Assembly: GCA_036478875.1 (NCBI GenBank)
Contig: JAZGEW010000068.1
Coordinates: forward strand, 4 to 64,003
DNA length: 64,000 bases
Source of the DNA: Promethearchaeia archaeon
GTDB taxonomy: Archaea > Asgardarchaeota > Lokiarchaeia > Sigyniarchaeales > SOKP01
Direction: 5' to 3'
The translations under genes were made by a program, and so were the position numbers. The notes beneath the pieces are model-generated. The model saw only the letters and a list, made by a program, of their open reading frames with translations. It ran no database searches and had not been told where the DNA came from. This document shows positions 10,224 through 54,787 of the stretch, one piece after another. The first letter of the stretch is position 1, and each line of letters starts with the position of its first letter.

Positions 10224-11672
10224 ATGGGAAATATACTACAAGACTTGGATAAGAATAAACATCGAAGAACTTTAGGAGTTCATTTGACCTCAAGAGATAT
10301 TTTTCTAAAATACATATTTCCCGAAATTAAAGATAAACTATGGGAATATACATGGATAGATTTATACGCCGGAGAAGGAAATTTAATTTTACCTATTTTA
10401 AATTCAATTTTGATTGAAAAAAGAATTCAATTTTTCATGGAGCATATTTTTTTATTTGATATTCAACCAGAAATGATACAAAAATGCATTAATAATGCTG
10501 AAAAATATGGTATCCCTCCAAAAATAGCTATTAAGAATATACAATTACGAGATAACTTAGAAACTTTTCCTAAATTTTTGATTAACACTCAATTCCCTTT
10601 ATACCATATAACTAATCCACCTTATCTCTATTTAGGATATATTAGAAAGCATAATGAGACTCAAAAATACCTAGAATTTTTCAAAGGTAAAAATGAGGGG
10701 TACCAAGATTTATACCAAATTGCTATGATAAATGATTTGAGGAATGGAATTAAGAAGTTGATTTACATAATTCCATCAAACTTCTTATATGGTGCATCTG
10801 TTTCAAATAAATTTCGCAAAGATTTTCTCAAATACTATAATATTAGTAAAATGATTATATTTGAAACAAAAATATTTGAATTCACAGGAACTAACATTTG
10901 TATTGGTTTTTTTAGTAGAAAAGAAGTACCCAAGACTGAATATATAGCATTTGAAGGAGTTAAAATAAAAAAATCTAATAGAACGATTGAAAAAAGATAT
11001 GTTCTTAAACCAGAATTTAAATACCGTGCTGGTTCTGAATTTGAGGAGTTTCTTAAAGAATACTATGCTCAAAAACCCTTAAAAGTTAATTATTATCTAT
11101 TAAAAGCAGATGTCCTAAAAAATGAAGGATATAATGAAATTAAGGTAATTGATGCTAACAATTATCAAAATAATGAATATAAGAAGTTAAACCTTCATAT
11201 TAATGATAAATTCAAAAAAAAAGTTAAATCGAACATTTTATATGTTAGAACTGTTGATACAGGTTCATACGATGGTAGGGTTGGATTAGGAATTATTAAT
11301 GAAGATTTTAAAGTTGATGGAATTTATGTCTCAGGAAACACGTATAGGACTCATCCAATTCAAATTTTTTTAGAACCGATAATTACTCAACAAGATCAAA
11401 TATTATTAAAAAACTACCTGAATTTCGTATTAGAAAGGTTTAGAGAAAAGTTAGATAGTGAATTTTTAACAACCTATAAATATTCTAATGCTGATTATAC
11501 TAGAAAATATTTAGGATTGACACAGGTAAGATCTTTAATAGAGACTCTTCCGATTATTAATATGGATTCAGAAAGTAAAATTATCTTAAATGATCTAGTA
11601 ACTAATGAGAAATTTGATGAAATACTTTTACTTTTAAAGAAATTCAAAAAAAAAGAAGATGACTATTCTTAA
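10224..11672 (+). CDS. N6-adenine-type DNA methyltransferase-like protein (orphan)
   Basis: 482 aa. It has the motif-I-like 'IDLYAGEGNL' and motif IV 'ITNPPYLY'. The large C-terminal region is unassigned, and no adjacent endonuclease-like gene is present. Confidence 0.55.
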   Translation: MGNILQDLDKNKHRRTLGVHLTSRDIFLKYIFPEIKDKLWEYTWIDLYAGEGNLILPILNSILIEKRIQFFMEHIFLFDIQPEMIQKCINNAEKYGIPPKIAIKNIQLRDNLETFPKFLINTQFPLYHITNPPYLYLGYIRKHNETQKYLEFFKGKNEGYQDLYQIAMINDLRNGIKKLIYIIPSNFLYGASVSNKFRKDFLKYYNISKMIIFETKIFEFTGTNICIGFFSRKEVPKTEYIAFEGVKIKKSNRTIEKRYVLKPEFKYRAGSEFEEFLKEYYAQKPLKVNYYLLKADVLKNEGYNEIKVIDANNYQNNEYKKLNLHINDKFKKKVKSNILYVRTVDTGSYDGRVGLGIINEDFKVDGIYVSGNTYRTHPIQIFLEPIITQQDQILLKNYLNFVLERFREKLDSEFLTTYKYSNADYTRKYLGLTQVRSLIETLPIINMDSESKIILNDLVTNEKFDEILLLLKKFKKKEDDYS

Positions 11673-11673
11673 G

Positions 11674-12546
11674 TTAAATACTTGCTAAAAGGAAAGCAAT
11701 TAATCCTAAAAAGGCACCTACTTTTAATAATAAGCTTATTTTTGAAAAATCTTTTTTATCTAAATTTTTATTAATCATTAATATTGCTGCGTAAAAAACC
11801 ACCAAAATTCCAAAAATCATTGAAATTGAAAAAGCTATCGGATTCAATAGTTCAGTGAAAGCAGCAAGTATGAAGAATAATATAGCTAAAAATGCAAAAG
11901 TCATAGAAAAGTAAGGTGTTCGTTTTAAACCGATTTTAATAGCTAATGTATTTACGCCTAGTGTTTTATCACCCTCGATATCTTCGCATCCTTTTATAAC
12001 CTCCCGAGATAACAAAAGAAAAAAGCTATTGAAAAAGAAAAAATAGATATAAATTGGAATTAATGAGCTATTAAGAATTGCTCCATATACTAAACCGATT
12101 GAAAAAGAAAAACTAACGATTAAATTACCAAAAAAACCACTTCTTTTACCCCATTTTGCATATACCCAACCCATAAAACCAAAAAAGATCGCAACAATTA
12201 CATTTAGAAAACCCAGTTCAAAAAGTAAGCTATGAATTATAGCAACAATAACGCCAAAAATCAATGTTCCGCAAAACAAATATTTTGCTTGAGATAAAGT
12301 TATTGCTCCCCTAGGAATCGGTCGCTCTGGTCTATTAATTTTATCAATCTCAATATCATAAATATCGTTAATGACCATACTTGAACCAGCAATAAAAAAA
12401 TAGGTTAAAACTCCAAGAATTATGTTAATGATGATTCTTTCAAACCCTATCCCTGTTCTAGTATTTAAGATTCCTATAATAACGGTTAAACTTCCCATAA
12501 TATCATTAATTGGGCGAAGAATCCCGATCGCATCTTTAATTTTCAT
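11674..12546 (-). CDS. digeranylgeranylglyceryl phosphate synthase (UbiA prenyltransferase family)
   Basis: 290 aa and multi-TM. It has the UbiA Asp-rich motif 'NDIYDIEIDKINRPERPIPRG' and lies in the ether-lipid cluster. Confidence 0.8.
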   Translation of the reverse strand: MKIKDAIGILRPINDIMGSLTVIIGILNTRTGIGFERIIINIILGVLTYFFIAGSSMVINDIYDIEIDKINRPERPIPRGAITLSQAKYLFCGTLIFGVIVAIIHSLLFELGFLNVIVAIFFGFMGWVYAKWGKRSGFFGNLIVSFSFSIGLVYGAILNSSLIPIYIYFFFFNSFFLLLSREVIKGCEDIEGDKTLGVNTLAIKIGLKRTPYFSMTFAFLAILFFILAAFTELLNPIAFSISMIFGILVVFYAAILMINKNLDKKDFSKISLLLKVGAFLGLIAFLLASI

Positions 12547-12559
12547 TAAAATTCACAAT

Positions 12560-13396
12560 TCATCTAATATTAAATTTTTTTTTCTGAATTTTACCAGTAT
12601 TTTTAATTTCATCAATAATTTCTTTTAAAGAGTTTCCATTATCTTTAAGGATGTGATTTTCGATGAAAGTACCCATTACAATAATATTTGCTCCAGCATC
12701 CACGAAAGCTCTCGCATCTTCTTTATTATCAACTCCCCCTCCAGTAATTATTGGAATATTTAAGATTGATGAGCAAGTTTTTATGTGTTCTGTTGGAATT
12801 TTTTCACCACCAGATCCCGCCTCTAAGTATATAATTTTGAAACCAAACATTTCTGCTGCTAGAGCATAAGCAGCTGTTAATTTAGGTTTATTTCTAGGTA
12901 GTAATTTGGCATTTCCAATCCACCCCGCACTCCCTCCAGGTTCTATTATTAAATATGCCATCGAGATATATTCTAGGTTAAATGATTTAATTGTATATGA
13001 AGCAAGTGCTTGTTGACCTACTATCGAATAAGGATCTGATGAATTTAATAAAGACATGAAAAAAATTGCATCAGCGTACTGAGAGATATTACTAATTCCT
13101 CCAGGAAAAATAATAATAGGCACTTCAACTTTACTTTGTATAGCTTGAATTGTTTTGTCAACAAAGGTTTGATCAAAAACGGTACTTCCACCGATTAGGA
13201 TGGCATCAGTCCCAGCATCTTCCGCATATTTTGCCATTTTTGCAGCTTTAATTGGCCCTTGTCTTAATGGATCAGGATCTATTAAAGAAAATTGCAGAGT
13301 ACCTTCATCATTGATTTTTTTAATTAAATACTCATAAGTACTTTTTTCAATATATTCATCAATTACAATATCGACCATATCTTTCACATCTTTCAA
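12560..13396 (-). CDS. geranylgeranylglyceryl phosphate synthase (PcrB/GGGPS family)
   Basis: 278 aa. The PcrB-type TIM-barrel motifs 'LIDPD', 'ILIGGS', 'YLEAGSGG' and 'GGGV' are present. Confidence 0.8.
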   Translation of the reverse strand: MKDVKDMVDIVIDEYIEKSTYEYLIKKINDEGTLQFSLIDPDPLRQGPIKAAKMAKYAEDAGTDAILIGGSTVFDQTFVDKTIQAIQSKVEVPIIIFPGGISNISQYADAIFFMSLLNSSDPYSIVGQQALASYTIKSFNLEYISMAYLIIEPGGSAGWIGNAKLLPRNKPKLTAAYALAAEMFGFKIIYLEAGSGGEKIPTEHIKTCSSILNIPIITGGGVDNKEDARAFVDAGANIIVMGTFIENHILKDNGNSLKEIIDEIKNTGKIQKKKFNIR

Positions 13397-13397
13397 T

Positions 13398-14792
13398 CTA
13401 TTTACTTTTTTTAGTACTTACAATCAATTTTTTAATCTGATCATAAATTTTAATAATTTTTTCTTTCCAATTGGAAAATTGATTTAAATTTTTAGGGAAA
13501 TTTTTATAAAGTTTAGATATCTCGTTCATTCTTATTCTAAGATAATTTAGATCTAATAATAAATTCGGACGCGAAATTCCCTTAAAAGCTTTAACTGCCA
13601 TATTAACTAATGATAAGTTTAATCCACCTTTAGAGGAAATTTCTAAAAGTTCTTCTCCACTTAATAAGTCACGTTCTAATCCAAAATTTAGATCTTCATT
13701 TGAAAGTGATTGAAGGACAATTCTTAATAAATCTAATGAAGCAAATTCTGCTCCAAAACTTGTCATTACATTATAATTATAATCCCATAATTCATTTATG
13801 GAATAATTATTATTTTCTATAGCATGTACCGCTGAATTTGCAGCGTGATATCCTGCCCGCATGGATGGATCTATTCCACCACCGTGAAGTGGATTAACTT
13901 GGCATGCAGCATCTCCAATTAACATAAAACCATTGTCAGCACACGACCATATTGGTCTTCTCACAGGAACTACACCACCTCCAGAGGAGAGAATATCAAA
14001 ATTAGATGTTTTAATAAATTCGTGAAAGACATGTGTTTTATAGAGATCTTTAACTTTACCTTTGTAATCCATGAATGTCCCGATTCCGATGTTAACTGAA
14101 GATTCATTTTTAGGAAAATACCAGATATAACCCCCTGGTGCTTTTTCTTGATCAAGAATAAGTGTAATATATTCAGGATCTTGGACCTCTTGATCTGTTG
14201 GTGAAAATCTCACTATTTCACGATAACATAAAATACTATCTTCTTTTAAAATATTCTTTTCAATTAAGGAACTTTTTACTTTTTTTCTTAAAGGGGAATA
14301 AAAACCACTGGCATCAATAACGATTTTCGCATTAAGACCCACCTTTTCTCCATTATTTAATTTGACTTGAACTCCATTTACAGTACCATTTTTATATAAT
14401 AAATCTAAAACCATAGTCTTATCTAAAAATTGTTTTACACCAGCATCGAGAGCTTCATTTAATAATCTCTGTCCAAATTCTAATCTATTTACAATATAAC
14501 CAGCTTGTTTTGGATCTATAAGAGTAATACATTTCTTAAGATTTGGCGAATATAATTTCGCTCCTTTTATATGGCACGATAGTTCTTCATTTTTTGGATG
14601 ATTTATCTTTAAAATATCAAAAATTTCATTTCCTACGGCATCACCACATATCTTATCTCCAATATCTCCTCTCTGTTTTCTATCAATCAAACATACATTT
14701 AAACCCTTCTTTGCTGTAAATCTTGCAGCGGTGGTTCCGCCTGTACCAGCTCCGACTATTATAACATCAAAGGATTTTTCTATGTTTTCCAT
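13398..14792 (-). CDS. geranylgeranyl reductase (digeranylgeranylglycerophospholipid reductase family flavoprotein)
   Basis: 464 aa with the FAD-binding 'FDVIIVGAGTGGTTAA' and the GGR-type 'GDAACQVNPLHGGGI'. Confidence 0.85.
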   Translation of the reverse strand: MENIEKSFDVIIVGAGTGGTTAARFTAKKGLNVCLIDRKQRGDIGDKICGDAVGNEIFDILKINHPKNEELSCHIKGAKLYSPNLKKCITLIDPKQAGYIVNRLEFGQRLLNEALDAGVKQFLDKTMVLDLLYKNGTVNGVQVKLNNGEKVGLNAKIVIDASGFYSPLRKKVKSSLIEKNILKEDSILCYREIVRFSPTDQEVQDPEYITLILDQEKAPGGYIWYFPKNESSVNIGIGTFMDYKGKVKDLYKTHVFHEFIKTSNFDILSSGGGVVPVRRPIWSCADNGFMLIGDAACQVNPLHGGGIDPSMRAGYHAANSAVHAIENNNYSINELWDYNYNVMTSFGAEFASLDLLRIVLQSLSNEDLNFGLERDLLSGEELLEISSKGGLNLSLVNMAVKAFKGISRPNLLLDLNYLRIRMNEISKLYKNFPKNLNQFSNWKEKIIKIYDQIKKLIVSTKKSK

Positions 14793-43359: not shown

Positions 43360-43890
43360 ATGTCTAAAAATTCCATTGCTCTTATTGGTTTTATGGCGAC
43401 TGGAAAAACAACCGTAGGTAGAGCGTTAGCTAAATATATTGGTGATGATTATCAATTTATTGAAACTGATCAATTAATAATTCAAGAAACTGGTAAAGCA
43501 ATTCCGAGTATTTTCACTGAAGAAGGAGAAGATAAATTCAGAGAATATGAAAGTGATGTATGTGAAAAAGTCTCGAAATTAAATAAAGTGGTTATTTCTT
43601 GTGGAGGAGGAATAGTCTTAAATAAGAAAAATGTTGAAAGTATAAAGAAAAATTGTCACATTGTCTTACTAAGGGCATCTCCGAAGGAAATTTATGAACG
43701 AATAAAAAAAAATGGAAAAACATCAAGACCTGTCATTAATATAAAAGATTCTAAAAGAGATATTAAAGAAATTCTGAAATTTCGAAAACCTTATTACAAA
43801 GAAGCAGCGGAAATTATTATTGATACATACAAAAAAAATATTGAGAATATTGTGAGAGAGATTGCTATAAAAACTCTACTAAAAACCTAA
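43360..43890 (+). CDS. aroK: shikimate kinase, P-loop AroK/AroL type
   Basis: 176 aa with 'IALIGFMATGKTTVGRALA', 'DTD', 'FREYE' and 'ISCGGGIV'. Confidence 0.85.
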   Translation: MSKNSIALIGFMATGKTTVGRALAKYIGDDYQFIETDQLIIQETGKAIPSIFTEEGEDKFREYESDVCEKVSKLNKVVISCGGGIVLNKKNVESIKKNCHIVLLRASPKEIYERIKKNGKTSRPVINIKDSKRDIKEILKFRKPYYKEAAEIIIDTYKKNIENIVREIAIKTLLKT

Positions 43891-44188: not shown

Positions 44189-44809
44189 TCACATCAAGGA
44201 TAACACTATTTTATTTTGAGCTTTTAACATGTCTTCCATAATAAGCTCCATAGCATCTTTAATATCCGGGTTATTATCAGGAATACTACGTTTAGCGTTC
44301 ACACTTGCCATTAAAACTTCATTCAATCCACGTAAGATCATATCAGGACTGTACCAAGGGCGTTTCGAAGCCCACCATTGCTGACAGCTGTGAATTCCCC
44401 GATCTAACAGATTTCTTGCGTTATCAAATATCCTTTTCTTCTCATCATCCATTCCATCCCGATATTTATCAGAGAGATGGATTAACGTAAGGGCGTACAT
44501 GAAAAACCGGTGTTGTTCAAGGTGAATTTCATTGTTAGGGTCGAGCCAGAGAGGAAATGGCACATCTGAAGCAATATCGTAGGGCATTGTCGACCAACTG
44601 GAATCTCGTGGGACTTGATTAAAGCCTTTAGGAAATTTATCAACTATTTCCGAGACAGTACATAATTTCACGTCGTCTCTATGTGGCAACGCACCAAATA
44701 GGGGTATGAGGAAATCCTTTATAGCGTGTTTTTTGGAAGTTTTTCGAATCTTTTCCCACTTTCGTATAATATTACAAAGATACAAAGGGGTTTTCGTGAT
44801 ACGGTACAT
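44189..44809 (-). CDS. hypothetical protein, possibly a C-terminal fragment of a larger (GH57-like?) enzyme
   Basis: 206 aa with clearly higher GC than its surroundings. 'DSSWSTMPYD...FPLWLDPNNE...IHSCQQWWASKRPWYSPDMI' loosely recalls GH57 C-terminal regions. No credible N-terminal catalytic part lies upstream. Confidence 0.3.
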   Translation of the reverse strand: MYRITKTPLYLCNIIRKWEKIRKTSKKHAIKDFLIPLFGALPHRDDVKLCTVSEIVDKFPKGFNQVPRDSSWSTMPYDIASDVPFPLWLDPNNEIHLEQHRFFMYALTLIHLSDKYRDGMDDEKKRIFDNARNLLDRGIHSCQQWWASKRPWYSPDMILRGLNEVLMASVNAKRSIPDNNPDIKDAMELIMEDMLKAQNKIVLSLM

Positions 44810-45416: not shown

Positions 45417-45530
45417 TGGTATTAGCTATGTACTTAAAGTATCTTTACTCATAAGGGAATTAAGGAGAAATGCAAGGAAAAGAGGAAGAGAAGGAGTAGT
45501 GGATAGTAGGTTAGTTTATATTTATTTTGC

Positions 45531-45553
45531 GAAACCACCCCTTCGGTGGTTTC
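45531..45553 (+). other. perfect 9-bp stem / 5-nt loop hairpin (GAAACCACC-CCTTC-GGTGGTTTC)
   Basis: Read directly from the sequence. It is GC-rich relative to the genome and sits in a ~400-nt region without a convincing ORF. It could be a terminator or part of an ncRNA. Confidence 0.3.
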
Positions 45554-45819
45554 TGCTGCTTCCGACTGCTCATTTTCAAAGGGTACTCGGTTCTTTTGCT
45601 CATTTCATATCGCTTCAGAACCGTCGCTCCTTTAAAAATTCGATTGTGTGTAAGAAAAGCGCCTTATTTCTAGACCTGTATAGGAGATTGGGTAACTGGT
45701 TTTTTGCATAAATGTAAAATATTTATAAATCCATTAATTTTCTAATTTAAAGAGGTAGAAAGTACAATAAATTAATATTTAAAGAAAGGTAACTGTACCT
45801 GTACTTAAAAACCATTATT

Positions 45820-46827: not shown

Positions 46828-47093
46828 ACGATGTTATACTATAATCTATTTCTTTAAATTAGATCTCAGAATCGAAGGAAAGTCTACAACATTAAAGAAA
46901 TATTTGGATAATTTGTCAGCATCTGATATATTTGAGGAAAGGGAGGGGACAAGGCTTAAGGTTCGAAAAATTTTGTAGTTTCGCTTATTATAAATATAAT
47001 AGATATTGGTATTGATGAGCATGAAGTTTGTGGTTAATTGTGCTTGACGCTGAAAGTCTTTAATCTAATTAGGTTTTTGCTTCGCGACTGTAC

Positions 47094-47108
47094 GGGGGAC
47101 AAGCCCCC
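47094..47108. terminator. GC hairpin GGGGG-ACAAG-CCCCC between convergent genes
   Basis: It lies 20 nt downstream of the stop of the minus-strand gene 47128..48141 and downstream of the plus-strand gene ending at 46827. The stem is unusually GC-rich for this genome. Confidence 0.35.
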
Positions 47109-47127
47109 GCTATCTATAATTTAATGA

Positions 47128-48141
47128 CTACTCTAAAAATAATTTCTTAAGATCTTCTTGATCAGAATCTTCATTTAACACAAGTTCTAAAAAAGATAAC
47201 ATGAATTCAGACATTTCACTTTCTTTAGGGGAATACTCTTTCATACGTTCAGTCCGATATTTTATAATTTCTTTATCCCTCTTAGATTTAAAGATTGGTT
47301 TTAGTTTATCTTGAAAATTTTTAAGAAATTCAAATAACCCTATCATGAATATATTAGCTATATTTTGCTCGTTTAATTCCTCACCAATTTCAAGGTTGAG
47401 TTGTTCATGCTTTATTGGAAAATTATCTAAAAGCATATTAATAAAAAAATCCTTTAATTCAGGAGTCACATTTTGAAGTTTGTTAATTTTTTCAAGTGAA
47501 TCTTCGTCGAAAGCTTCCATACATTCTACTAAGCCTGATAGAGTCTTAATTAAGATTTCGAAATTTTCAGAATCTATTTGTTCGGGTTCGCCAAATTTCT
47601 TATAGACGTCTCTCTCAACTTGGAGATATGGAATTGCTTTTTCTAATTTAATTTTAAGACTTTCAGCATGTCTTTTAGTAATATGAGTAGGGCTTAAAAA
47701 GTTAGTCTTGGCGTTATTTAGAGACACATAGATACCATGAATCCGTAAATACCATAGATTTTCTGCTTTTTGTATTTCTTCTGAGAACTTATGTACTTCT
47801 GTTTTGTTTATCTTATTCTTACTTTGGAGTAATAGTTCATATAATTTGCTTAGATACCCGAATGGCTCTTGAGTTGTAAATAAACTTATTATATTTGGAA
47901 TAACAAGCTTTTTTCTATGATTAAGGAATTTTTCAAGCTTTTGTGGTTTGGGTGTATCATAATTCTTTAAAATAAAATATGCTACACCCATTTCTTCAAA
48001 GGCAGTTATAAAAGAAAAACAAGCATGCCCGTATGAGCCGTTTTCCATTAATAATTTTCCATCCTCATATAATTGAATAACATTTCCAATAGAAATATCG
48101 ATTCCCTTTTGCCACGTTTCTACATTCAAAAACTCACACAC
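47128..48141 (-). CDS. AbiV-like (HEPN-superfamily) abortive-infection-type protein
   Basis: 337 aa. The N-terminal 'NVIQLYEDGKLLMENGSYGHACFSFITAFEEMGVAYFILK...FLNHRKKL' resembles the AbiV-family helical domain. Confidence 0.4.
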   Translation of the reverse strand: MCEFLNVETWQKGIDISIGNVIQLYEDGKLLMENGSYGHACFSFITAFEEMGVAYFILKNYDTPKPQKLEKFLNHRKKLVIPNIISLFTTQEPFGYLSKLYELLLQSKNKINKTEVHKFSEEIQKAENLWYLRIHGIYVSLNNAKTNFLSPTHITKRHAESLKIKLEKAIPYLQVERDVYKKFGEPEQIDSENFEILIKTLSGLVECMEAFDEDSLEKINKLQNVTPELKDFFINMLLDNFPIKHEQLNLEIGEELNEQNIANIFMIGLFEFLKNFQDKLKPIFKSKRDKEIIKYRTERMKEYSPKESEMSEFMLSFLELVLNEDSDQEDLKKLFLE

Positions 48142-48300: not shown

Positions 48301-48447
48301 TTATGAAATGGTGAAAATCTGGAGTTCATAATCTTTATCTGGGTTTATTTTACCTGAGCGAATATATTCAATGGGGATATTGAAATAATAGTTCTTTCCT
48401 TTCTTTGTGGGTTTTTTTATGAGCGTGGTAACTAATCTTGATTCCAT
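48301..48447 (-). CDS. small (48 aa) AbrB/SpoVT-like DNA-binding protein candidate
   Basis: Manual translation gives MESRLVTTLIKKPTKKGKNYYFNIPIEYIRSGKINPDKDYELQIFTIS. The 'yyfnIPieyir...i...d.eL.i' pattern resembles swapped-hairpin AbrB domains. It is divergent from the 48587 operon and below the ORF-track cutoff. Confidence 0.3.
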   Translation of the reverse strand: MESRLVTTLIKKPTKKGKNYYFNIPIEYIRSGKINPDKDYELQIFTIS

Positions 48448-48471
48448 AGTATACTATTAAGTAATATACTA
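48447..48471. promoter_or_regulatory. imperfect inverted repeat TAGTATACTA-ttaag-TAATATACTA at the divergent promoter region
   Basis: The 10-nt arms carry one mismatch. The repeat overlaps the start codon of the small minus-strand ORF and is followed by the TATA-like ACTATATATAT. Confidence 0.25.
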
Positions 48472-48586
48472 TATATATGTTTTGATATAATACACAAAAT
48501 CAACTGGGTCTAAGGAGATATAAGGGCAATAAATATTATTCTAAGTATAACACTTGATCTAACACTAATAAAAGATGTGAATCAAA

Positions 48587-48901
48587 ATGAGCATAATAGT
48601 TGGCAGAAAGCACGGGAATGGGTATCATGATAGTGTTTACTGCAGAATAAACGTTGAATATTCTGAGAAATTTAAGGATCTGCTAGACTATGAACAGCGT
48701 CAACTAAAAGAGCATTCGGGAGTCATTTATGAACGGGAATTTATAGCTTCGTGGATTAAAAGAATTTGTATTAAATGTCCTTTAACGTATCCTAGGAAAT
48801 ATTTGGAAAAACAAGGTAATATTTTTGTATGTCCAGAGTGCGGATTGAAAAAAATACCTAAAGGGGTAGCATATAGAGAGGGGAAGAAAGCAAATGGTTA
48901 A
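48587..48901 (+). CDS. zinc-ribbon protein, first gene of the island module
   Basis: 104 aa with 'CIKCPLTY...VCPECG'. It overlaps the next ORF by 8 nt. Confidence 0.45.
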   Translation: MSIIVGRKHGNGYHDSVYCRINVEYSEKFKDLLDYEQRQLKEHSGVIYEREFIASWIKRICIKCPLTYPRKYLEKQGNIFVCPECGLKKIPKGVAYREGKKANG

Positions 48902-49097
48902 AGTTACAATTCTGGAACGGAATAAGGACTTTCTTATAAAGGAAATAAGGTATAAAAAAGCCCGTTTTAATAGAAAATTCAGAGATAAAACAGTAATTTT
49001 AGCATATGTTAATGAGAACCTTAACAACATATTAAATAATAGAAATCTGAAAGAAATTGAGAATACCGATAAATTAACTAACTCCTTTTTTTTATAA
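48894..49097 (+). CDS. small basic hypothetical protein
   Basis: 67 aa and Lys/Arg/Asn-rich. It overlaps the upstream ORF, and its coding status is uncertain. Confidence 0.3.
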   Translation: MVKVTILERNKDFLIKEIRYKKARFNRKFRDKTVILAYVNENLNNILNNRNLKEIENTDKLTNSFFL

Positions 49098-49143
49098 CTT
49101 TTAATAAATTAATGAACAATGAAAATAAGAATTAAAAAAAGTC

Positions 49144-51483
49144 GTGATCAAAATTATGGATGTTTCAGTAAAAAATCAATGTAAGTATAAGCAGTGGTTA
49201 TTAAAAAAACCATTTCAAAAAGACTATGAAGATAAGCTATTGAACTTTTTAGACGATTATATTAAAAAGCTTACCCTTCCAGCGACTTACAAGAGATTAT
49301 CATTTACTATTTATAGAGATATTTTACATTCAATTGAGAGTACTCCTGAAGAGTCTAAATTTAATGTATTTTATGAAAATCTTGATATAATTAAAGGAGC
49401 TAGATATATATCAGCTTCCTTATTATTGCTTGCCCTTTTAAAAAATGAAATAACCATTAAACAGCAAGATTTAGCTCTATTGTTAAATTTAAATAATCAA
49501 TTTAATATTAGCAGAACTTTCAATAGTTTAATCACCTACTTAAAGCGACTCCCAAGCTATTCATACATTTATAGGTTTATTTCTGTTAGAAATCTATCGA
49601 AGCAGGAATATAAAAATGCATGTTTAGAAAATATTAATTATTTTTCTAATCTTTTAATTAGGCAAAATCTAATTAATGAAAATGAGGTTGATGCCATTGT
49701 ATTGTTGTTTACCACGCTTTATGATAAAATTATTGAAGAATTAAATAGTGTAATGCTAAAGCATCCTAAATATATAGCTTCTACAATTTGCTGGATTTAT
49801 TTAACCTATTATAAGGATTTTGATATCACAGGCACTCAATTTGTAAGCATAATTCATTTGAGAAAAGATACCAGATTTAAAGGAAACAACAAATTGACTG
49901 AAGATATACTTATAACCGATCCCCGATTATTATCAAAAATTAAGAACGATTTTATTCGAAAAATTTTCGAGTTAGATTTGAATTTATATAAATCTAAAGT
50001 AAAAACCTGCTTAGATGATTATATATTTAAAATAAAGCTTTGGTTTATTCACTCTTTTCCAAATAAAGTTCAACTCAAACATATTTTAAACCTGTTAGGT
50101 CAAAAGTTCTTGACAGAGAGTTTTGAATTATTTGACAGAGCAATTGAAAATGGGTTTCAAATAAATTATTTTGCTAAAACGAATAAGCATTATTACTATT
50201 TTCCGCAAACGATGGCACTTTCTTTAATTTTTTATACTTCAAGAAGCGATAAAGCCCTTCAAGAAATATTAAATGTCAAATTTTTCGAAGCGGTATTTAA
50301 ATCAGATCCGAGTCTGCTTTATTTTAAAAGATCTTTTAGGTATATTACTGAAAAGGAGAATCGCTTATATTCGTTCATTAAAGAGGAGATCGGACGATAT
50401 AAAGGACAAGTCTATTCAAAAGACTCATTTAAGAAAAAATTAACTCATGAGTTAAAACGATTTTATCATTTAGAAACTGATTTCTTGCTTAAACTATACA
50501 ATAAGACTAATCTTTCCCCTTTTGAATTCGGAAAAAAATTAAATATTCACAGCGGACGTGGGGTTACGAGTATTTTACAAGTGGTAGAGAACAAATCTAA
50601 ATTCACAGAACCAAAAACCTTTTTGAACATTAGGAAATTCATCATAAAGTATCTTGAACCTAAAGAACAAAAAAAAGCATTAATATGGCTGAAGAATATT
50701 AGAAATTTACGTTATAATGACTTTCGGCATGGAAGTATCACGTATTCTTTTAAATGGATTAGAACGAGATTTACCAAATTTTTAAATAATTCCCTCTATC
50801 GATACCTTTTTAAACTTTGGAAAGGGAATTATCCAAGGCATATTTTTGTAGATCCTAACAACACCCGTGCTTCAAATCTAAAATTTCACGGAACAAAAGA
50901 AGAACACGTTAAGACTGACATAATAGAGCAGTATTTTTATAATTTTCTTGAAATTTATGATTCTAATTATTATTTATGTCGTCATGCTAGAAGTGTATTT
51001 AGCCATTACAGAATCAATAAGATAGGTAAACAGCCAGATCATCCCCCTATTTTAAATTATATTCTATCCGAAGAAAAGAAAGCTTTAGCTATAGAGATTC
51101 CCGTATGGAAAGAAAGTAATAATCTTGGAAATACTGAATATTTTATTGGTCATATTGATTTGTTGTTAGTAGAGGGTGATACTTTAGTAATTGCTGATTA
51201 TAAGCCAAAATTACGGGAAATTTATAAATCCTTACTGCAAATTACCGCATATGCCATCTTCTTAAGAGATAGATTAGAAAATTACAGTGAAAATGCGAAT
51301 ATTAAGATAAAGTGTGTTGGTTTCACAAAAGATCAGGCAATCGAATGGAATCCAGAGACAATATTTCCTAAAATAATAGAATATGTTGAAAAAGAAAATG
51401 AAAACCGAAAAAATATTCTGTTAACCGCTAGTAGAAAAATTAAAAAAGATTTATTAAATGAATTAAGAAAAATAAAACAATAA
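49144..51483 (+). CDS. large helical-repeat protein with C-terminal RecB-family PD-(D/E)xK nuclease domain
   Basis: 779 aa, starting at GTG 49144 or ATG 49156. The C-terminal motifs are 'AIEIPV', 'GHIDLLLVEGDTLVIADYKPK' (51148-51210; D672 with D685-x-K687) and 'LLQITAYAIFL' (the QxxxY motif of RecB/Cas4-like nucleases). Confidence 0.6.
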   Translation: MIKIMDVSVKNQCKYKQWLLKKPFQKDYEDKLLNFLDDYIKKLTLPATYKRLSFTIYRDILHSIESTPEESKFNVFYENLDIIKGARYISASLLLLALLKNEITIKQQDLALLLNLNNQFNISRTFNSLITYLKRLPSYSYIYRFISVRNLSKQEYKNACLENINYFSNLLIRQNLINENEVDAIVLLFTTLYDKIIEELNSVMLKHPKYIASTICWIYLTYYKDFDITGTQFVSIIHLRKDTRFKGNNKLTEDILITDPRLLSKIKNDFIRKIFELDLNLYKSKVKTCLDDYIFKIKLWFIHSFPNKVQLKHILNLLGQKFLTESFELFDRAIENGFQINYFAKTNKHYYYFPQTMALSLIFYTSRSDKALQEILNVKFFEAVFKSDPSLLYFKRSFRYITEKENRLYSFIKEEIGRYKGQVYSKDSFKKKLTHELKRFYHLETDFLLKLYNKTNLSPFEFGKKLNIHSGRGVTSILQVVENKSKFTEPKTFLNIRKFIIKYLEPKEQKKALIWLKNIRNLRYNDFRHGSITYSFKWIRTRFTKFLNNSLYRYLFKLWKGNYPRHIFVDPNNTRASNLKFHGTKEEHVKTDIIEQYFYNFLEIYDSNYYLCRHARSVFSHYRINKIGKQPDHPPILNYILSEEKKALAIEIPVWKESNNLGNTEYFIGHIDLLLVEGDTLVIADYKPKLREIYKSLLQITAYAIFLRDRLENYSENANIKIKCVGFTKDQAIEWNPETIFPKIIEYVEKENENRKNILLTASRKIKKDLLNELRKIKQ

Positions 51484-52490: not shown

Positions 52491-53660
52491 ATGAAAATCT
52501 TAGTTCCTGATACAAATCTTTTACTTCATGGAAAATTCATTTCTGAGATTAAATGGAGATCTATCCTTAGAGAGAAAAAGATATGTATATTAATACCACA
52601 TATGATTTTAAAAGAATTAGATAAAGCTAAATATTCAAGCAATACAAATCGTAAAAAAAGAGCAAGGAAATTGATATCTTTTTTCAAGAAATATGAAAAT
52701 AATGAGGAACTTCAGAGGGAAATACCTTTATTCTTTTCTTCTAAAAAGATTAATTGGAGTGATCTCCCCTTGAATTATGATTATTTGCTAGATGAAAATG
52801 AAGCAGATCACCATATACTTGCTGAAATTATACAATATTTCCTTGATCGCTTAGATGATGTATATTTAATTACTGGAGATTTTACACTTTCCAAATTTAC
52901 TTTAGAATTAGGAATAAAGGTAATAGATTGGCTAGAGGATGAAAAATATAAAGATATATTTACACTAGGGGACGAAAAAAAAGAAAAAATGCCTAAACTT
53001 CCTGATTTAGGTTTGTTTTTTGATGAACAATCAGCCAAAGAGTTAACTCTTAAAGAAAAAGATAAAAAACCGAAATTATTGAGTCGTGATGAATTAACTG
53101 AACCTAATGTCCAATATGATATTAAATGGGAACTTGAACATCCAGGAGTTATTAACAATCTGATAAAGTGTTATAATGAGCAATTACTCTTAATCAATAA
53201 ACATCAAGAAATCAATTTATTTGTATTCAACCATTGTGATCACCCATATAATGATATTGACATTTATATTACAGCAACTTTAGAAAAAAATTTCGTATTT
53301 ACTGTGCAACAATTAATAAAATTGCCCCGTAAACCCATAATACCCGAATTAAATGTTAGTTATGTAGGTGATATTCCCTTAAGCCCTCAAGAAGGAATTT
53401 ACAACACTGGAAGTAGTAAAAGGACTATACTAAATAATCTCGGTATGAGAATAGAGTCAGAAGAGAAAGAAAAGCATACTATTTGGAAAGTTATTTATCA
53501 TATGGATCGAATTAAACATAATACATCTATGGAACTCCATCCCCTATTACTATTTATTCCCGATTCATATAAAACCAAAAAAATTCAAATTAAGATTGCT
53601 TATACTCACGAGGAGATAGGTACAATTAAAGCACAGATAAGAACCATTACTCTAGCTTAA
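52491..53660 (+). CDS. PIN-domain nuclease (YlaK/PhoH-associated PIN type) fused to an unknown ~230-aa C-terminal domain
   Basis: 389 aa. The acidic residues fall in the canonical PIN pattern: 'ILVPDTNLLLHG', 'LIPHMILKELDKAK', 'ENEADHHILAEI' and 'YLITGDFTLSKFTLELGIKV'. Confidence 0.6.
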   Translation: MKILVPDTNLLLHGKFISEIKWRSILREKKICILIPHMILKELDKAKYSSNTNRKKRARKLISFFKKYENNEELQREIPLFFSSKKINWSDLPLNYDYLLDENEADHHILAEIIQYFLDRLDDVYLITGDFTLSKFTLELGIKVIDWLEDEKYKDIFTLGDEKKEKMPKLPDLGLFFDEQSAKELTLKEKDKKPKLLSRDELTEPNVQYDIKWELEHPGVINNLIKCYNEQLLLINKHQEINLFVFNHCDHPYNDIDIYITATLEKNFVFTVQQLIKLPRKPIIPELNVSYVGDIPLSPQEGIYNTGSSKRTILNNLGMRIESEEKEKHTIWKVIYHMDRIKHNTSMELHPLLLFIPDSYKTKKIQIKIAYTHEEIGTIKAQIRTITLA

Positions 53661-54034
53661 ATTAAATATATTCAATTGTATAACAGCAATAATAAAGAAA
53701 ATTAAATTTAAAAAATGATTATAAATGGATTTAAATATATGGCGGAAGGGATTAAAATTATCTAATGAAAATATTACACGCTTAAGAGATAATGGATTAA
53801 TTCTAATGGAAAATCATTTATGATTGTATATTATGCTTGTAAAAAATTTTATCTTTGTATAATATTATACAAGCTAAAAGGGTGTTTAAAATAAAATCCT
53901 CTTTTATTATAAAAAAATTAAAAGAAAAGTGATAAAATGAACGATTTAAAAAAACAAAATATACTACCATATAATAAACTAAAAATCCTACTTTTTTTAA
54001 TCTTTATAGTTCTAATTTTAGAAATTAGAAAATT

Positions 54035-54787
54035 TTAAAGAAAATTAGGAAATAAATGGTATATCTCTCTCATTTCATCAATATTTATTTGCCCAGGGGC
54101 AGTTTTTTCTTCTAGGGAAGCGTATGTTAAAAATGAACCAATAGTGACACACATAATCCGAGAGAAAATCCCTAGTGTCCCCATACAGAATGAAATTAGT
54201 TTTTGTGCTGAATTAGAGAATTCTTTACATAATCTTAATGGTATTATGTTATCTTCAAAGGTTTGAGCAGTAAAAACAACTTTATAAATATTATTTTGAT
54301 ATATTTTAGGGTTTAGAGATGACTCTTGATTTAATTTATTACTGAAATTTTGAATAAGCTTGATTGTTTCATCAAATTCTATTGTTTTTTCAAAATTATG
54401 GTATGAATAAATTATTTTTACTTCTTTTTCAGAAGCTAAATTAATGATTTCCCATAAGATGTTTTTATTAGTATTCATCTCAAAGTCAATATAATCAGGT
54501 TTAGCCTCTATAAACATTTTCAGGATTTTATAGCGTTCTTTTTGATTTATTTTGATTTGTCCACCTTCAGATGAGTCTCTGAAAGTAAATATCACAGGAA
54601 TATTAGAGGTAATAATAACCATTAATTCCTTTATAAAATCTAACGAAAGTGTTTGAGCATTATTTATATAATCAAATCGTAATTCAATCAGATTAGGATT
54701 TTTTTTTATTGTTTTATCCAAAATCGGTTTTATTTCACTTATATTCGCGGATTTAATTGGAATTGGAATGCAAATATTATATTTCAT
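54035..54787 (-). CDS. aroD: 3-dehydroquinate dehydratase, type I
   Basis: 250 aa with 'NLIELRFDY', 'PVIFTFR' and a later 'FCMG' region consistent with type I DHQase. Confidence 0.7.
   Translation of the reverse strand: MKYNICIPIPIKSANISEIKPILDKTIKKNPNLIELRFDYINNAQTLSLDFIKELMVIITSNIPVIFTFRDSSEGGQIKINQKERYKILKMFIEAKPDYIDFEMNTNKNILWEIINLASEKEVKIIYSYHNFEKTIEFDETIKLIQNFSNKLNQESSLNPKIYQNNIYKVVFTAQTFEDNIIPLRLCKEFSNSAQKLISFCMGTLGIFSRIMCVTIGSFLTYASLEEKTAPGQINIDEMREIYHLFPNFL

Follow-up and report, generated by a model that had tools for sequence, protein, structure and literature searches.

Within 64,000 nucleotides of a Promethearchaeia archaeon (assembly GCA_036478875.1, contig JAZGEW010000068.1, positions 4 to 64,003; hereafter the window), an open reading frame (ORF) at 49144-51483 of the plus strand encodes a protein in which three helical repeats of the cyclin/TFIIB fold and a further helical domain precede a C-terminal nuclease module of the Cas4/RecB type (Table 1). 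The ORF, first proposed from the letters of the DNA and referred to below as part of the original prediction, is real, and comprises 779 amino acids when read from the GTG at 49144. The ATG at 49156, which would give a protein of 775 residues, is the likelier true start, because the three closest homologs (P0001-P0003) open at the methionine of residue 5 ('MDV...'). An A/T-rich, TATA-like stretch upstream could provide the gene with a promoter of its own. The G+C content of the window is approximately 30%, and it contains neither tRNA genes nor a CRISPR-like tandem array.

The nuclease module

The nuclease module measures some 240 residues (approximately 523-760). The original prediction had placed its start near residue 640, leaving a domain of 130 residues, but homologs that consist of the nuclease only (235-290 amino acids) begin at the equivalent of residue 523. 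An AlphaFold2 (AF2) model of residues 400-779, made from an alignment of 35 sequences, has a predicted local distance difference test score (pLDDT) of 92 and a predicted template modelling score (pTM) of 0.85. When this model is compared to the PDB with Foldseek, the Cas4 proteins SSO0001 (4ic1, E = 1.3e-3, probability 1.00) and Pcal_0546 (4r5q) are found, together with a DinG-nuclease, MGME1, the nuclease domains of RecB, AddA and AdnA, and further RecE, Exo5 and ACE1, an Argonaute-associated member of the Cas4 family (9iac). The sole Pfam family matched is PDDEXK_1 (PF12705), which is found in 20 of 35 members at E <= 0.01 (best 3e-5); with respect to its gathering threshold of 22 bits, the full-length protein scores 20.6 and the fragment 400-779 scores 22.2. 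A sequence-only search of the PDB with the nuclease returned nothing.

Translation of 51094-51255 gives EIPVWKESNNLGNTEYFIGHIDLLLVEGDTLVIADYKPKLREIYKSLLQITAYA, the part of the module in which the catalytic motifs lie. E651, D672, D685, K687, Q699 and Y703 are invariant across seven close homologs. In an alignment of 40 diverse homologs, whose identity to the window protein is 25-87%, S577, E651, W655, G669, K687, Q699, Y703 and C724 are invariant, and H670, D672 and D685 are conserved in at least 90%. To judge from these residues, the active site is catalytically intact. C612 and C724 are the only cysteines in residues 523-779 and C724 alone is kept across the family, which excludes a four-cysteine Fe-S cluster of the Cas4 type. 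With these results the original prediction, which had read a PD-(D/E)xK signature, a QxxxY motif and the absence of the four Cas4 cysteines from this one sequence and had called the module RecB/Cas4-like, is borne out by the alignment as well as by the model. A primase or replicase, the identity it had named as a competing one, left no sign in the Pfam, PDB or fold searches.

The module thus has the fold (Foldseek probability up to 1.00) and the motifs (E, hhD, D/ExK and QxxxY) of the clade that unites Cas4 with RecB, AddA, AddB, Exo5 and MGME1, but differs from it by an N-terminal beta-hairpin of its own ('FxHxxxxYxFxW') and a 'KPxHxPIL' helix. In contrast to Cas4, it lacks the [4Fe-4S] or [2Fe-2S] cluster with its four cysteines, and neither cas1 nor cas2 among the scanned ORFs nor a CRISPR array in the window accompanies it. 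No Cas family is present among the 25 listed of the 43 PADLOC families matched by window ORFs of at least 200 amino acids, and no cas genes were seen among the scanned neighbours in related loci.

The N-terminal repeats

The N-terminal half consists of three homologous helical repeats, at residues of about 20-140, 141-245 and 260-400. When the family was cut into segment profiles and these were compared pairwise by hhalign, the first segment matched the second with a probability of 99% (E = 7e-17) and the third with 95.6% (E = 4e-9), and the second matched the third with 81% (E = 1.4e-6). The profiles of repeats 1 and 2 moreover match each other's region in many homologs. The three repeats can be aligned in register at their equivalent helices (ARYISASLLLLAL / PKYIASTICWIYL / PQTMALSLIFYTS), and these helices are the same three segments that the original prediction had offered as examples of a recurring pattern, a recurrence that proves to be far beyond chance. 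It had, however, spread the repeats over some 640 residues; three repeats do exist, but residues 401-520 form a distinct domain and the remainder belongs to the nuclease. Each repeat carries, compared to TFB, an insertion of about 15 residues ('KFxxFY') between helices 2 and 3, and in repeat 3 the secondary structure of the model shows a beta-hairpin inserted ahead of the 'YYFPQTMALSL' helix.

In a full-length AF2 model, built from an alignment of seven sequences, confidence is good over residues 20-240 and 280-520 (pLDDT 70-94) and low in the nuclease part. In a Foldseek comparison to the PDB, all of the top 50 places are taken by TFIIB/TFB, Brf2/TFIIIB or the cyclins K, C, H and T, with probabilities up to 1.00, E-values from 8e-3 to 0.2 and approximately 250-280 aligned columns. 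The root mean square deviation (rmsd) is 7.6-8.6 Å for TFB/TFIIB (template modelling (TM) score up to 0.44) versus 16-18 Å for the cyclins, and the best matches include TFIIB/TFB cores bound to TBP-DNA (1ais, 1vol, 1c9b and structures of preinitiation complexes). In BFVD, the top places go to TFIIBs of giant viruses, namely a 'TFIIB repeat' protein of a choanoflagellate virus (E = 3.2e-5, 425 columns) and Brf1/TFIIB of a Tetraselmis virus (E = 2.4e-4), and the TFB of a Saccharolobus rod-shaped virus is present as well.

At the level of sequence the relationship is fainter. The N-terminal profile, run against 177,635 PDB sequences, ranks TFB/TFIIB proteins at all of the first five places, but with E-values of about 1; in the sequence-only PDB searches with the protein and three profiles nothing was significant, and only this ranking is suggestive. 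I also compared the repeats to a TFB/TFIIB profile of 12 sequences, six of them haloarchaeal TFBs encoded on plasmids (from PLSDB) and six eukaryotic TFIIBs. The haloarchaeal sequences were added for diversity, as the human TFIIB query had yielded only metazoan TFIIBs of at least 64% identity; the core of this query retrieved a TFIIB cluster of 100% identity, and the sequence agrees with the PDB alignments. Repeat 1 matches repeat 1 of TFIIB in the correct register (probability 67%, E = 5e-5) and repeat 2 of TFIIB with a probability of 38% (E = 3e-4), while repeats 2 and 3 do not match this profile. Pfam gave no match to PF00382 at E <= 1, none to PF08271 and none to Cyclin_N or Cyclin_C, and residues 1-20 are devoid of the Cys/His ribbon of a B-ribbon.

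The fold of the repeats is therefore of the cyclin/TFIIB type and TFB is its closest relative, yet the protein itself is not a TFB, because it has no B-ribbon, no match to PF00382 and three repeats. The TFIIB/cyclin-like modules that had been proposed by eye are thereby upheld as to their fold, but not as to membership of the TFIIB family. Like the TFB/TFIIB core (PF00382), the array is built of tandem five-helix cyclin-type repeats, with helix 3 ('PkY.AasLlY') and the helix-turn-helix-like (HTH-like) segment of helices 4 and 5 in register. It differs in having three repeats (one to four in the family) instead of two, in the 'KFxxFY' insertion in each of these, in the absence of B-ribbon, B-reader and B-linker, in the C-terminal nuclease, and in being encoded by a gene of variable islands rather than by a core transcription gene. 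From the cyclins it is set apart by the missing Cyclin_N and Cyclin_C matches and by an rmsd that is worse than for TFB/TFIIB. Taken as a whole, the protein would be neither a TFB nor a Cas4.

Between the repeats and the nuclease lies a domain, here called M2, whose conserved stretches read FYHLETDFLLKLY...LSPFEFG..LNIHSGRGVTSIL, with invariant columns that are present in close homologs. No other non-catalytic part of the protein is conserved as well as M2, for which the rate of nonsynonymous substitution (dN) is 0.10, and in the model M2 looks like a helical domain containing an HTH. No known family matched it. A fourth cyclin repeat was considered for this region and rejected, since hhalign assigns a probability of at most 9% to its similarity with the repeats.

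Distribution and evolution of the family

A word-indexed search of 5.8 billion proteins detected six full-length relatives of 87-36% identity, all unannotated and one of them named Thorarchaeota. A second search of this kind, starting from an alignment of 40 sequences, gave seven matches, as low-complexity A/T-rich words swamped the candidates. When 1.84 billion cluster representatives were searched exhaustively with a profile, 280 relatives were retrieved at E <= 1e-3, 61 of them at E <= 1e-30, and every relative with a source name is from Promethearchaeota, Lokiarchaeota or Thorarchaeota. Two patterns of close relatives were matched in four of 185,579 species genomes, all of them metagenome-assembled genomes of Promethearchaeota, a count that by its nature does not extend to diverged members. 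The viral contigs of IMG/VR contain no relative, and Pfam, NCBIfam and PADLOC have no family for the protein apart from the borderline PDDEXK_1 and weak Cas4 matches.

The architecture is modular. Among 156 family sequences, one to four repeats are found before the nuclease, and in 43 cases the nuclease module stands by itself, complete with its two halves. There are also repeat arrays in which no nuclease was detected, many such sequences being metagenomic fragments. In one member (P0030) a second pair of repeats replaces repeat 3 and M2, and in some distant members (P0013, P0139 and P0020) a zinc ribbon is fused just ahead of repeat 1. Tandem pairs of diverged stand-alone nucleases (approximately 270 and 285 amino acids) are encoded at three related loci (Table 1); in each copy E, D, DxK and QxxxY are retained, and a long stretch is inserted ahead of the GHIDLL strand. 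These tandem paralogs may form a heterodimer.

Substitution rates were calculated by the method of Nei and Gojobori (NG86). The ratio of nonsynonymous to synonymous substitution (dN/dS) is 0.14-0.41 in every domain and 0.22-0.30 for the whole gene, which is under purifying selection; the nuclease, with 0.14-0.16, is the most constrained part. In the comparison of the window to the related locus L003, dN is 0.27-0.38 in the repeats and 0.06 in the nuclease, and the repeats evolve three to five times faster than the nuclease. Between 49156-51483 of the window and 5929-8256 of L003, synonymous sites have diverged by 1.1-1.2 in the 5' half of the gene, which encodes the repeats, as opposed to 0.33-0.38 in the 3' half, which encodes M2 and the nuclease. 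This approximately threefold contrast between the halves indicates that the gene is a recombinant mosaic, with a putative breakpoint near codon 400. A fast N-terminus on a conserved effector would be the pattern expected for the specificity module of a conflict gene.

The island and its neighbours

The gene is located inside an island of about 10 kb (approximately 44.0-54.0 kb) that interrupts a neighbourhood of shikimate-pathway genes. The island also harbours a HEPN_AbiV protein, a PIN_4-domain protein, small zinc-ribbon ORFs and ORFs without a family match. Related loci have equivalent islands between housekeeping genes, which are differently filled: neighbours there include AbiJ_NTD4, Hypoth_Ymh, DUF4145 (twice), HI_0787_N and DUF87, elsewhere a kinase-HD protein, a subtilase, a TPR-phosphoesterase and a protein with multiple winged HTH domains, and, directly downstream of the gene, an Eco57I/TaqI_C type IIG restriction-modification (R-M) enzyme and an N6_N4 methylase. 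Across clades, no neighbouring gene is retained as a constant partner.

Directly upstream of the gene, an ORF of 104 amino acids encodes a C4 zinc ribbon. A copy that is 83% identical is found upstream in L003 and L014, and none in L001 and L005-7. Its second knuckle, 'VCPECGL', resembles the 'ICPECGL' of the TFIIB B-ribbon, a likeness that is not significant (Zn_Ribbon_TF, E = 0.21; tblastn, E = 1.7-3.9). The ribbon protein is a possible partner of the nuclease. A split TFB, with this ribbon as the missing B-ribbon, was considered and set aside as speculation, as the ORF is confined to the closest relatives and the match to the TFIIB ribbon is non-significant.

The islands are bounded by partial, diverged duplicates of the adjoining host gene. 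In the Thor-like clade these are the inverted C-terminal 180 amino acids of a GH57 glycosidase and a dehydroquinase fragment, and in a second clade they derive from a 4Fe-4S ferredoxin-domain gene. The fragments resemble the traces that repeated insertions or inversions would leave at a hot spot. Five intergenic blocks of 60-285 bp, which are 73-93% identical to L001/L003, part non-homologous gene cassettes from each other, and the block that lies 3' of the nuclease gene in L001 comes, in the window, only after two additional genes, namely the 284-aa ORF and the gene of the PIN protein. These blocks might serve as common promoters or terminators or, alternatively, as sites of recombination; Rfam has no match in them or elsewhere in the island. 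Of those island ORFs that were scanned, none stood out as an integrase or transposase, and convincing terminal repeats are absent. A basic ORF of 81 amino acids adjoins the GH57 fragment in the window, L001 and L003 (71-75% identity) and is followed in the window by a C4 zinc-ribbon ORF of 80 amino acids. The island ORFs of 284 amino acids, with two CxxC pairs near its N-terminus, and of 335 amino acids match no Pfam, NCBIfam or PADLOC family and are candidates for further defence genes.

Table 1. Coordinates of features in the window and, where a locus is named, in related loci (aa, amino acids)
Feature	Position	Strand	Remarks
A/T-rich TATA-like stretch	49090..49115	+	about 45 bp 5' of ATG 49156; read from sequence
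Cyclin/TFIIB-like repeat 1, residues 20-140	49201..49563	+	hhalign, TFB profile, Foldseek; model pLDDT 76-94
Cyclin/TFIIB-like repeat 2, residues 141-245	49564..49878	+	hhalign; cross-matching profiles
Cyclin/TFIIB-like repeat 3, residues 260-400	49921..50343	+	hhalign; model secondary structure
Helical HTH-like domain M2, residues 401-520	50344..50703	+	conserved columns; pLDDT about 90
Cas4/RecB-type PD-(D/E)xK nuclease, residues 521-760	50704..51423	+	AF2, Foldseek, PDDEXK_1; no Fe-S
E651, motif I 'IEIPVWK'	51094..51096	+	coordinates checked by translation
D672, motif II 'GHIDLL'	51157..51159	+	translation
D685-Y-K687, motif III 'ADYKP'	51196..51204	+	translation
Q699-x3-Y703, motif IV of the RecB/Cas4 clade	51238..51252	+	translation
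Shikimate kinase	43360-43890		island flank
GH57 fragment	44189-44809	-	no full GH57 copy in the window
Basic ORF, 81 aa	44929-45174	+	
C4 zinc-ribbon ORF, 80 aa	45174-45416	+	
ORF, 335 aa	45820-46827	+	
HEPN_AbiV protein	47128..48141	-	Pfam E = 6.4e-15; PADLOC AbiV E = 1e-8
C4 zinc-ribbon ORF, 104 aa ('CIKC...VCPECGL')	48587..48901	+	C-x2-C-x17-C-x2-C
ORF, 284 aa	51591-52445	+	
PIN_4-domain protein	52491..53660	+	Pfam E = 2.3e-11
Dehydroquinase, then adenylate kinase	54035-54787		island flank
Conserved intergenic blocks	45524-45645, 46843-47127, 48305-48555, 53839-53962, 53964-54024		
GH57 fragment and full gene	L003 590-1186; 10897-12105	-; +	
GH57 fragments and full gene	L001 2682-3149, 17738-17941; 14419-15627	-, -; +	
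Dehydroquinase fragment and gene	L001 18031-18216; 20202-20954	-; -	
Fer4 (4Fe-4S ferredoxin-domain) fragments and gene	L007 2714-3244, 14747-15115; 10339-11415	+ (all)	
Tandem nuclease pair	L025 151-960 and 933-1796		
Tandem nuclease pair	L026 302-1156 and 1336-2163		
Tandem nuclease pair	L027 1140-1943 and 2014-2883		

Possible functions

Whatever is said here about function, I infer. The reading I favour, tentatively and with a probability of roughly 0.45, is that of a stand-alone, single-protein defence or conflict nuclease, specific to Asgard archaea, with the TFB-like array as its sensor or targeting part. The fast-evolving, recombining array would provide the specificity, and its ligand could be a foreign protein or DNA that resembles a promoter, perhaps a TBP-DNA complex of the kind bound by TFB; the array would thereby position or release the C-terminal nuclease, which, by analogy to Cas4, RecB, AddA, MGME1 and Exo5, may cut single-stranded DNA (ssDNA) or DNA ends. 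Defence is proposed because the gene sits in variable islands that are rich in defence-type genes. With the generic class of defence proteins that combine a sensor with a nuclease effector it has in common the variable defence island and the variable N-terminus on a conserved nuclease, and ACE1 belongs to the structural matches of its nuclease; it differs from that class in the TFIIB/cyclin-fold array that would serve as sensor, and from ACE1 in that no Argonaute gene was present among the scanned neighbours at any locus.

Several observations weigh against this interpretation. The argument for defence is one of guilt by association and draws on about 12 informative loci, and on several short contigs the gene has only ordinary neighbours, such as genes of metabolism (thioesterase, TruD, GH1). 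Among the defence families of PADLOC and Pfam none accounts for the protein, and the matches to Cas4 in PADLOC are weak (E ~2e-3). The full-length model is of moderate confidence (pLDDT 63), the Foldseek matches to the PDB have E-values of about 1e-2 and TM-scores of 0.3-0.44, and the likeness to TFIIB is weak in sequence, with the 67% of repeat 1 as best probability. Cyclin folds have proteins for ligands no less often than DNA. Finally, a defence model leaves unexplained how self DNA is spared.

Alternatively, the protein could be a housekeeping nuclease of DNA repair or recombination, engaged in end resection or flap processing, with the repeats as a scaffold for repair partners. The structural relatives of the nuclease, including RecB, AddA, AdnA, MGME1, Exo5 and the DinG-nuclease, would fit such a role, as would a chromosomal gene under purifying selection. 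I consider this unlikely, however, as the range of the gene is patchy (the four species genomes mentioned above, diverged members being uncounted), as it is always found in variable, non-syntenic cassettes and not beside repair genes, and as its N-terminus is fast-evolving and recombinant, with a number of repeats that varies.

Equally doubtful is a specific version of the favoured reading, in which the TFB-like core docks on TBP-TATA/BRE (BRE, the B recognition element) and hands the melted promoter DNA of invaders to the nuclease, resulting in transcription-coupled immunity or silencing. Nucleases of the Cas4/RecB type require ssDNA and open complexes offer it, so that this need would be met. 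The TFIIB/TFB cores with TBP-DNA are the best structural matches, with an rmsd below that of the cyclins, helices 4 and 5 of each repeat align to the HTH-like segment of TFB, an extra HTH-like domain follows the repeats, and a TFIIB-ribbon-like ORF lies upstream in the nearest relatives, with a fused ribbon in some distant members. On the other hand, PF00382 is not matched, there are three repeats instead of two and each has its 15-residue insertion, most loci lack the zinc-ribbon gene, and host promoters would be hit as well. A still less probable extension makes the protein a targeting device derived from TFB, whose duplicated TFIIB-type core would read TBP/promoter complexes or open promoter DNA and feed the melted strand to a Cas4-type nuclease. 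In this reading the original zinc ribbon would still be fused in some members and be split off here as the 104-aa ORF.

The nuclease might also build the islands themselves, as a site-directed, homing-like nuclease or recombination factor that inserts cassettes beside a target gene, which would agree with the segment being flanked in every clade by a host gene and its partial duplicates, with the short conserved intergenic blocks between variable cassettes, and with the lack of a noticed integrase or transposase among the island ORFs scanned. I think this improbable, as no terminal repeats delimit an element, the gene is absent from IMG/VR contigs, the duplicated host gene varies by clade, and some loci have no duplications; furthermore, no role as sequence-specific recombinase is known for enzymes of the Cas4/RecB type. 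Least credible of all is a transcription regulator or TFB paralog whose nuclease-like domain only binds DNA or oligomerises, which the TFB-like N-terminus followed by an HTH-like domain would suit, but which is difficult to reconcile with catalytic and metal-binding residues kept over deep divergence, with the nuclease as the most constrained part of the protein, and with the lack of a B-ribbon or B-reader for contact with RNA polymerase.

Significance

The nuclease as such is of a known kind; new are the TFB-like array as its partner, the subfamily without Fe-S cluster, and the restriction to Asgard archaea. The literature covered, to which subscription journals do not belong, describes no fusion of a TFIIB or cyclin fold to a Cas4/RecB nuclease, and to my knowledge a TFIIB/cyclin-fold array has not been described before as sensor of a defence nuclease. 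The result is an unannotated, Asgard-restricted family of some 280 cluster representatives in which TFIIB/cyclin repeats are tethered to a Cas4/RecB-type nuclease, and within it a Cas4-like subfamily without Fe-S cluster that is able to stand alone, sometimes as tandem paralogs.

Archaeal immunity is poorly charted outside CRISPR and R-M. If this is a defence protein, a transcription-factor fold joins the sensors and targeting modules, and if the TFB-derived reading were true, Asgard immunity or silencing would read the transcription-initiation apparatus. Cyclin-fold proteins in Asgard archaea other than TFB are relevant to the origin of the eukaryotic cyclin/Rb/TFIIB superfamily. A corollary of the TFB-derived reading would be a pool of divergent, fast-evolving cyclin-fold repeat proteins outside basal transcription in these archaea, which would bear on the diversification of the cyclin, Rb and TFIIB folds before eukaryotes.

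Other observations

In the related locus L005, a protein of 802 amino acids with multiple winged helices (HTH_24, DeoR and MarR-like) is encoded at 11422-13830 of the minus strand, where it adjoins, on the downstream side of the family member, the ferredoxin-domain gene; by BLAST it is unrelated to the nuclease fusion. Among the 34 large ORFs of the window (at least 200 amino acids) that were compared to PADLOC, a type II or IIG (PglX-like) methyltransferase was found outside the island (E = 1.7e-75), and a viperin-like radical S-adenosylmethionine match (E = 3e-12) is likewise situated elsewhere in the window.

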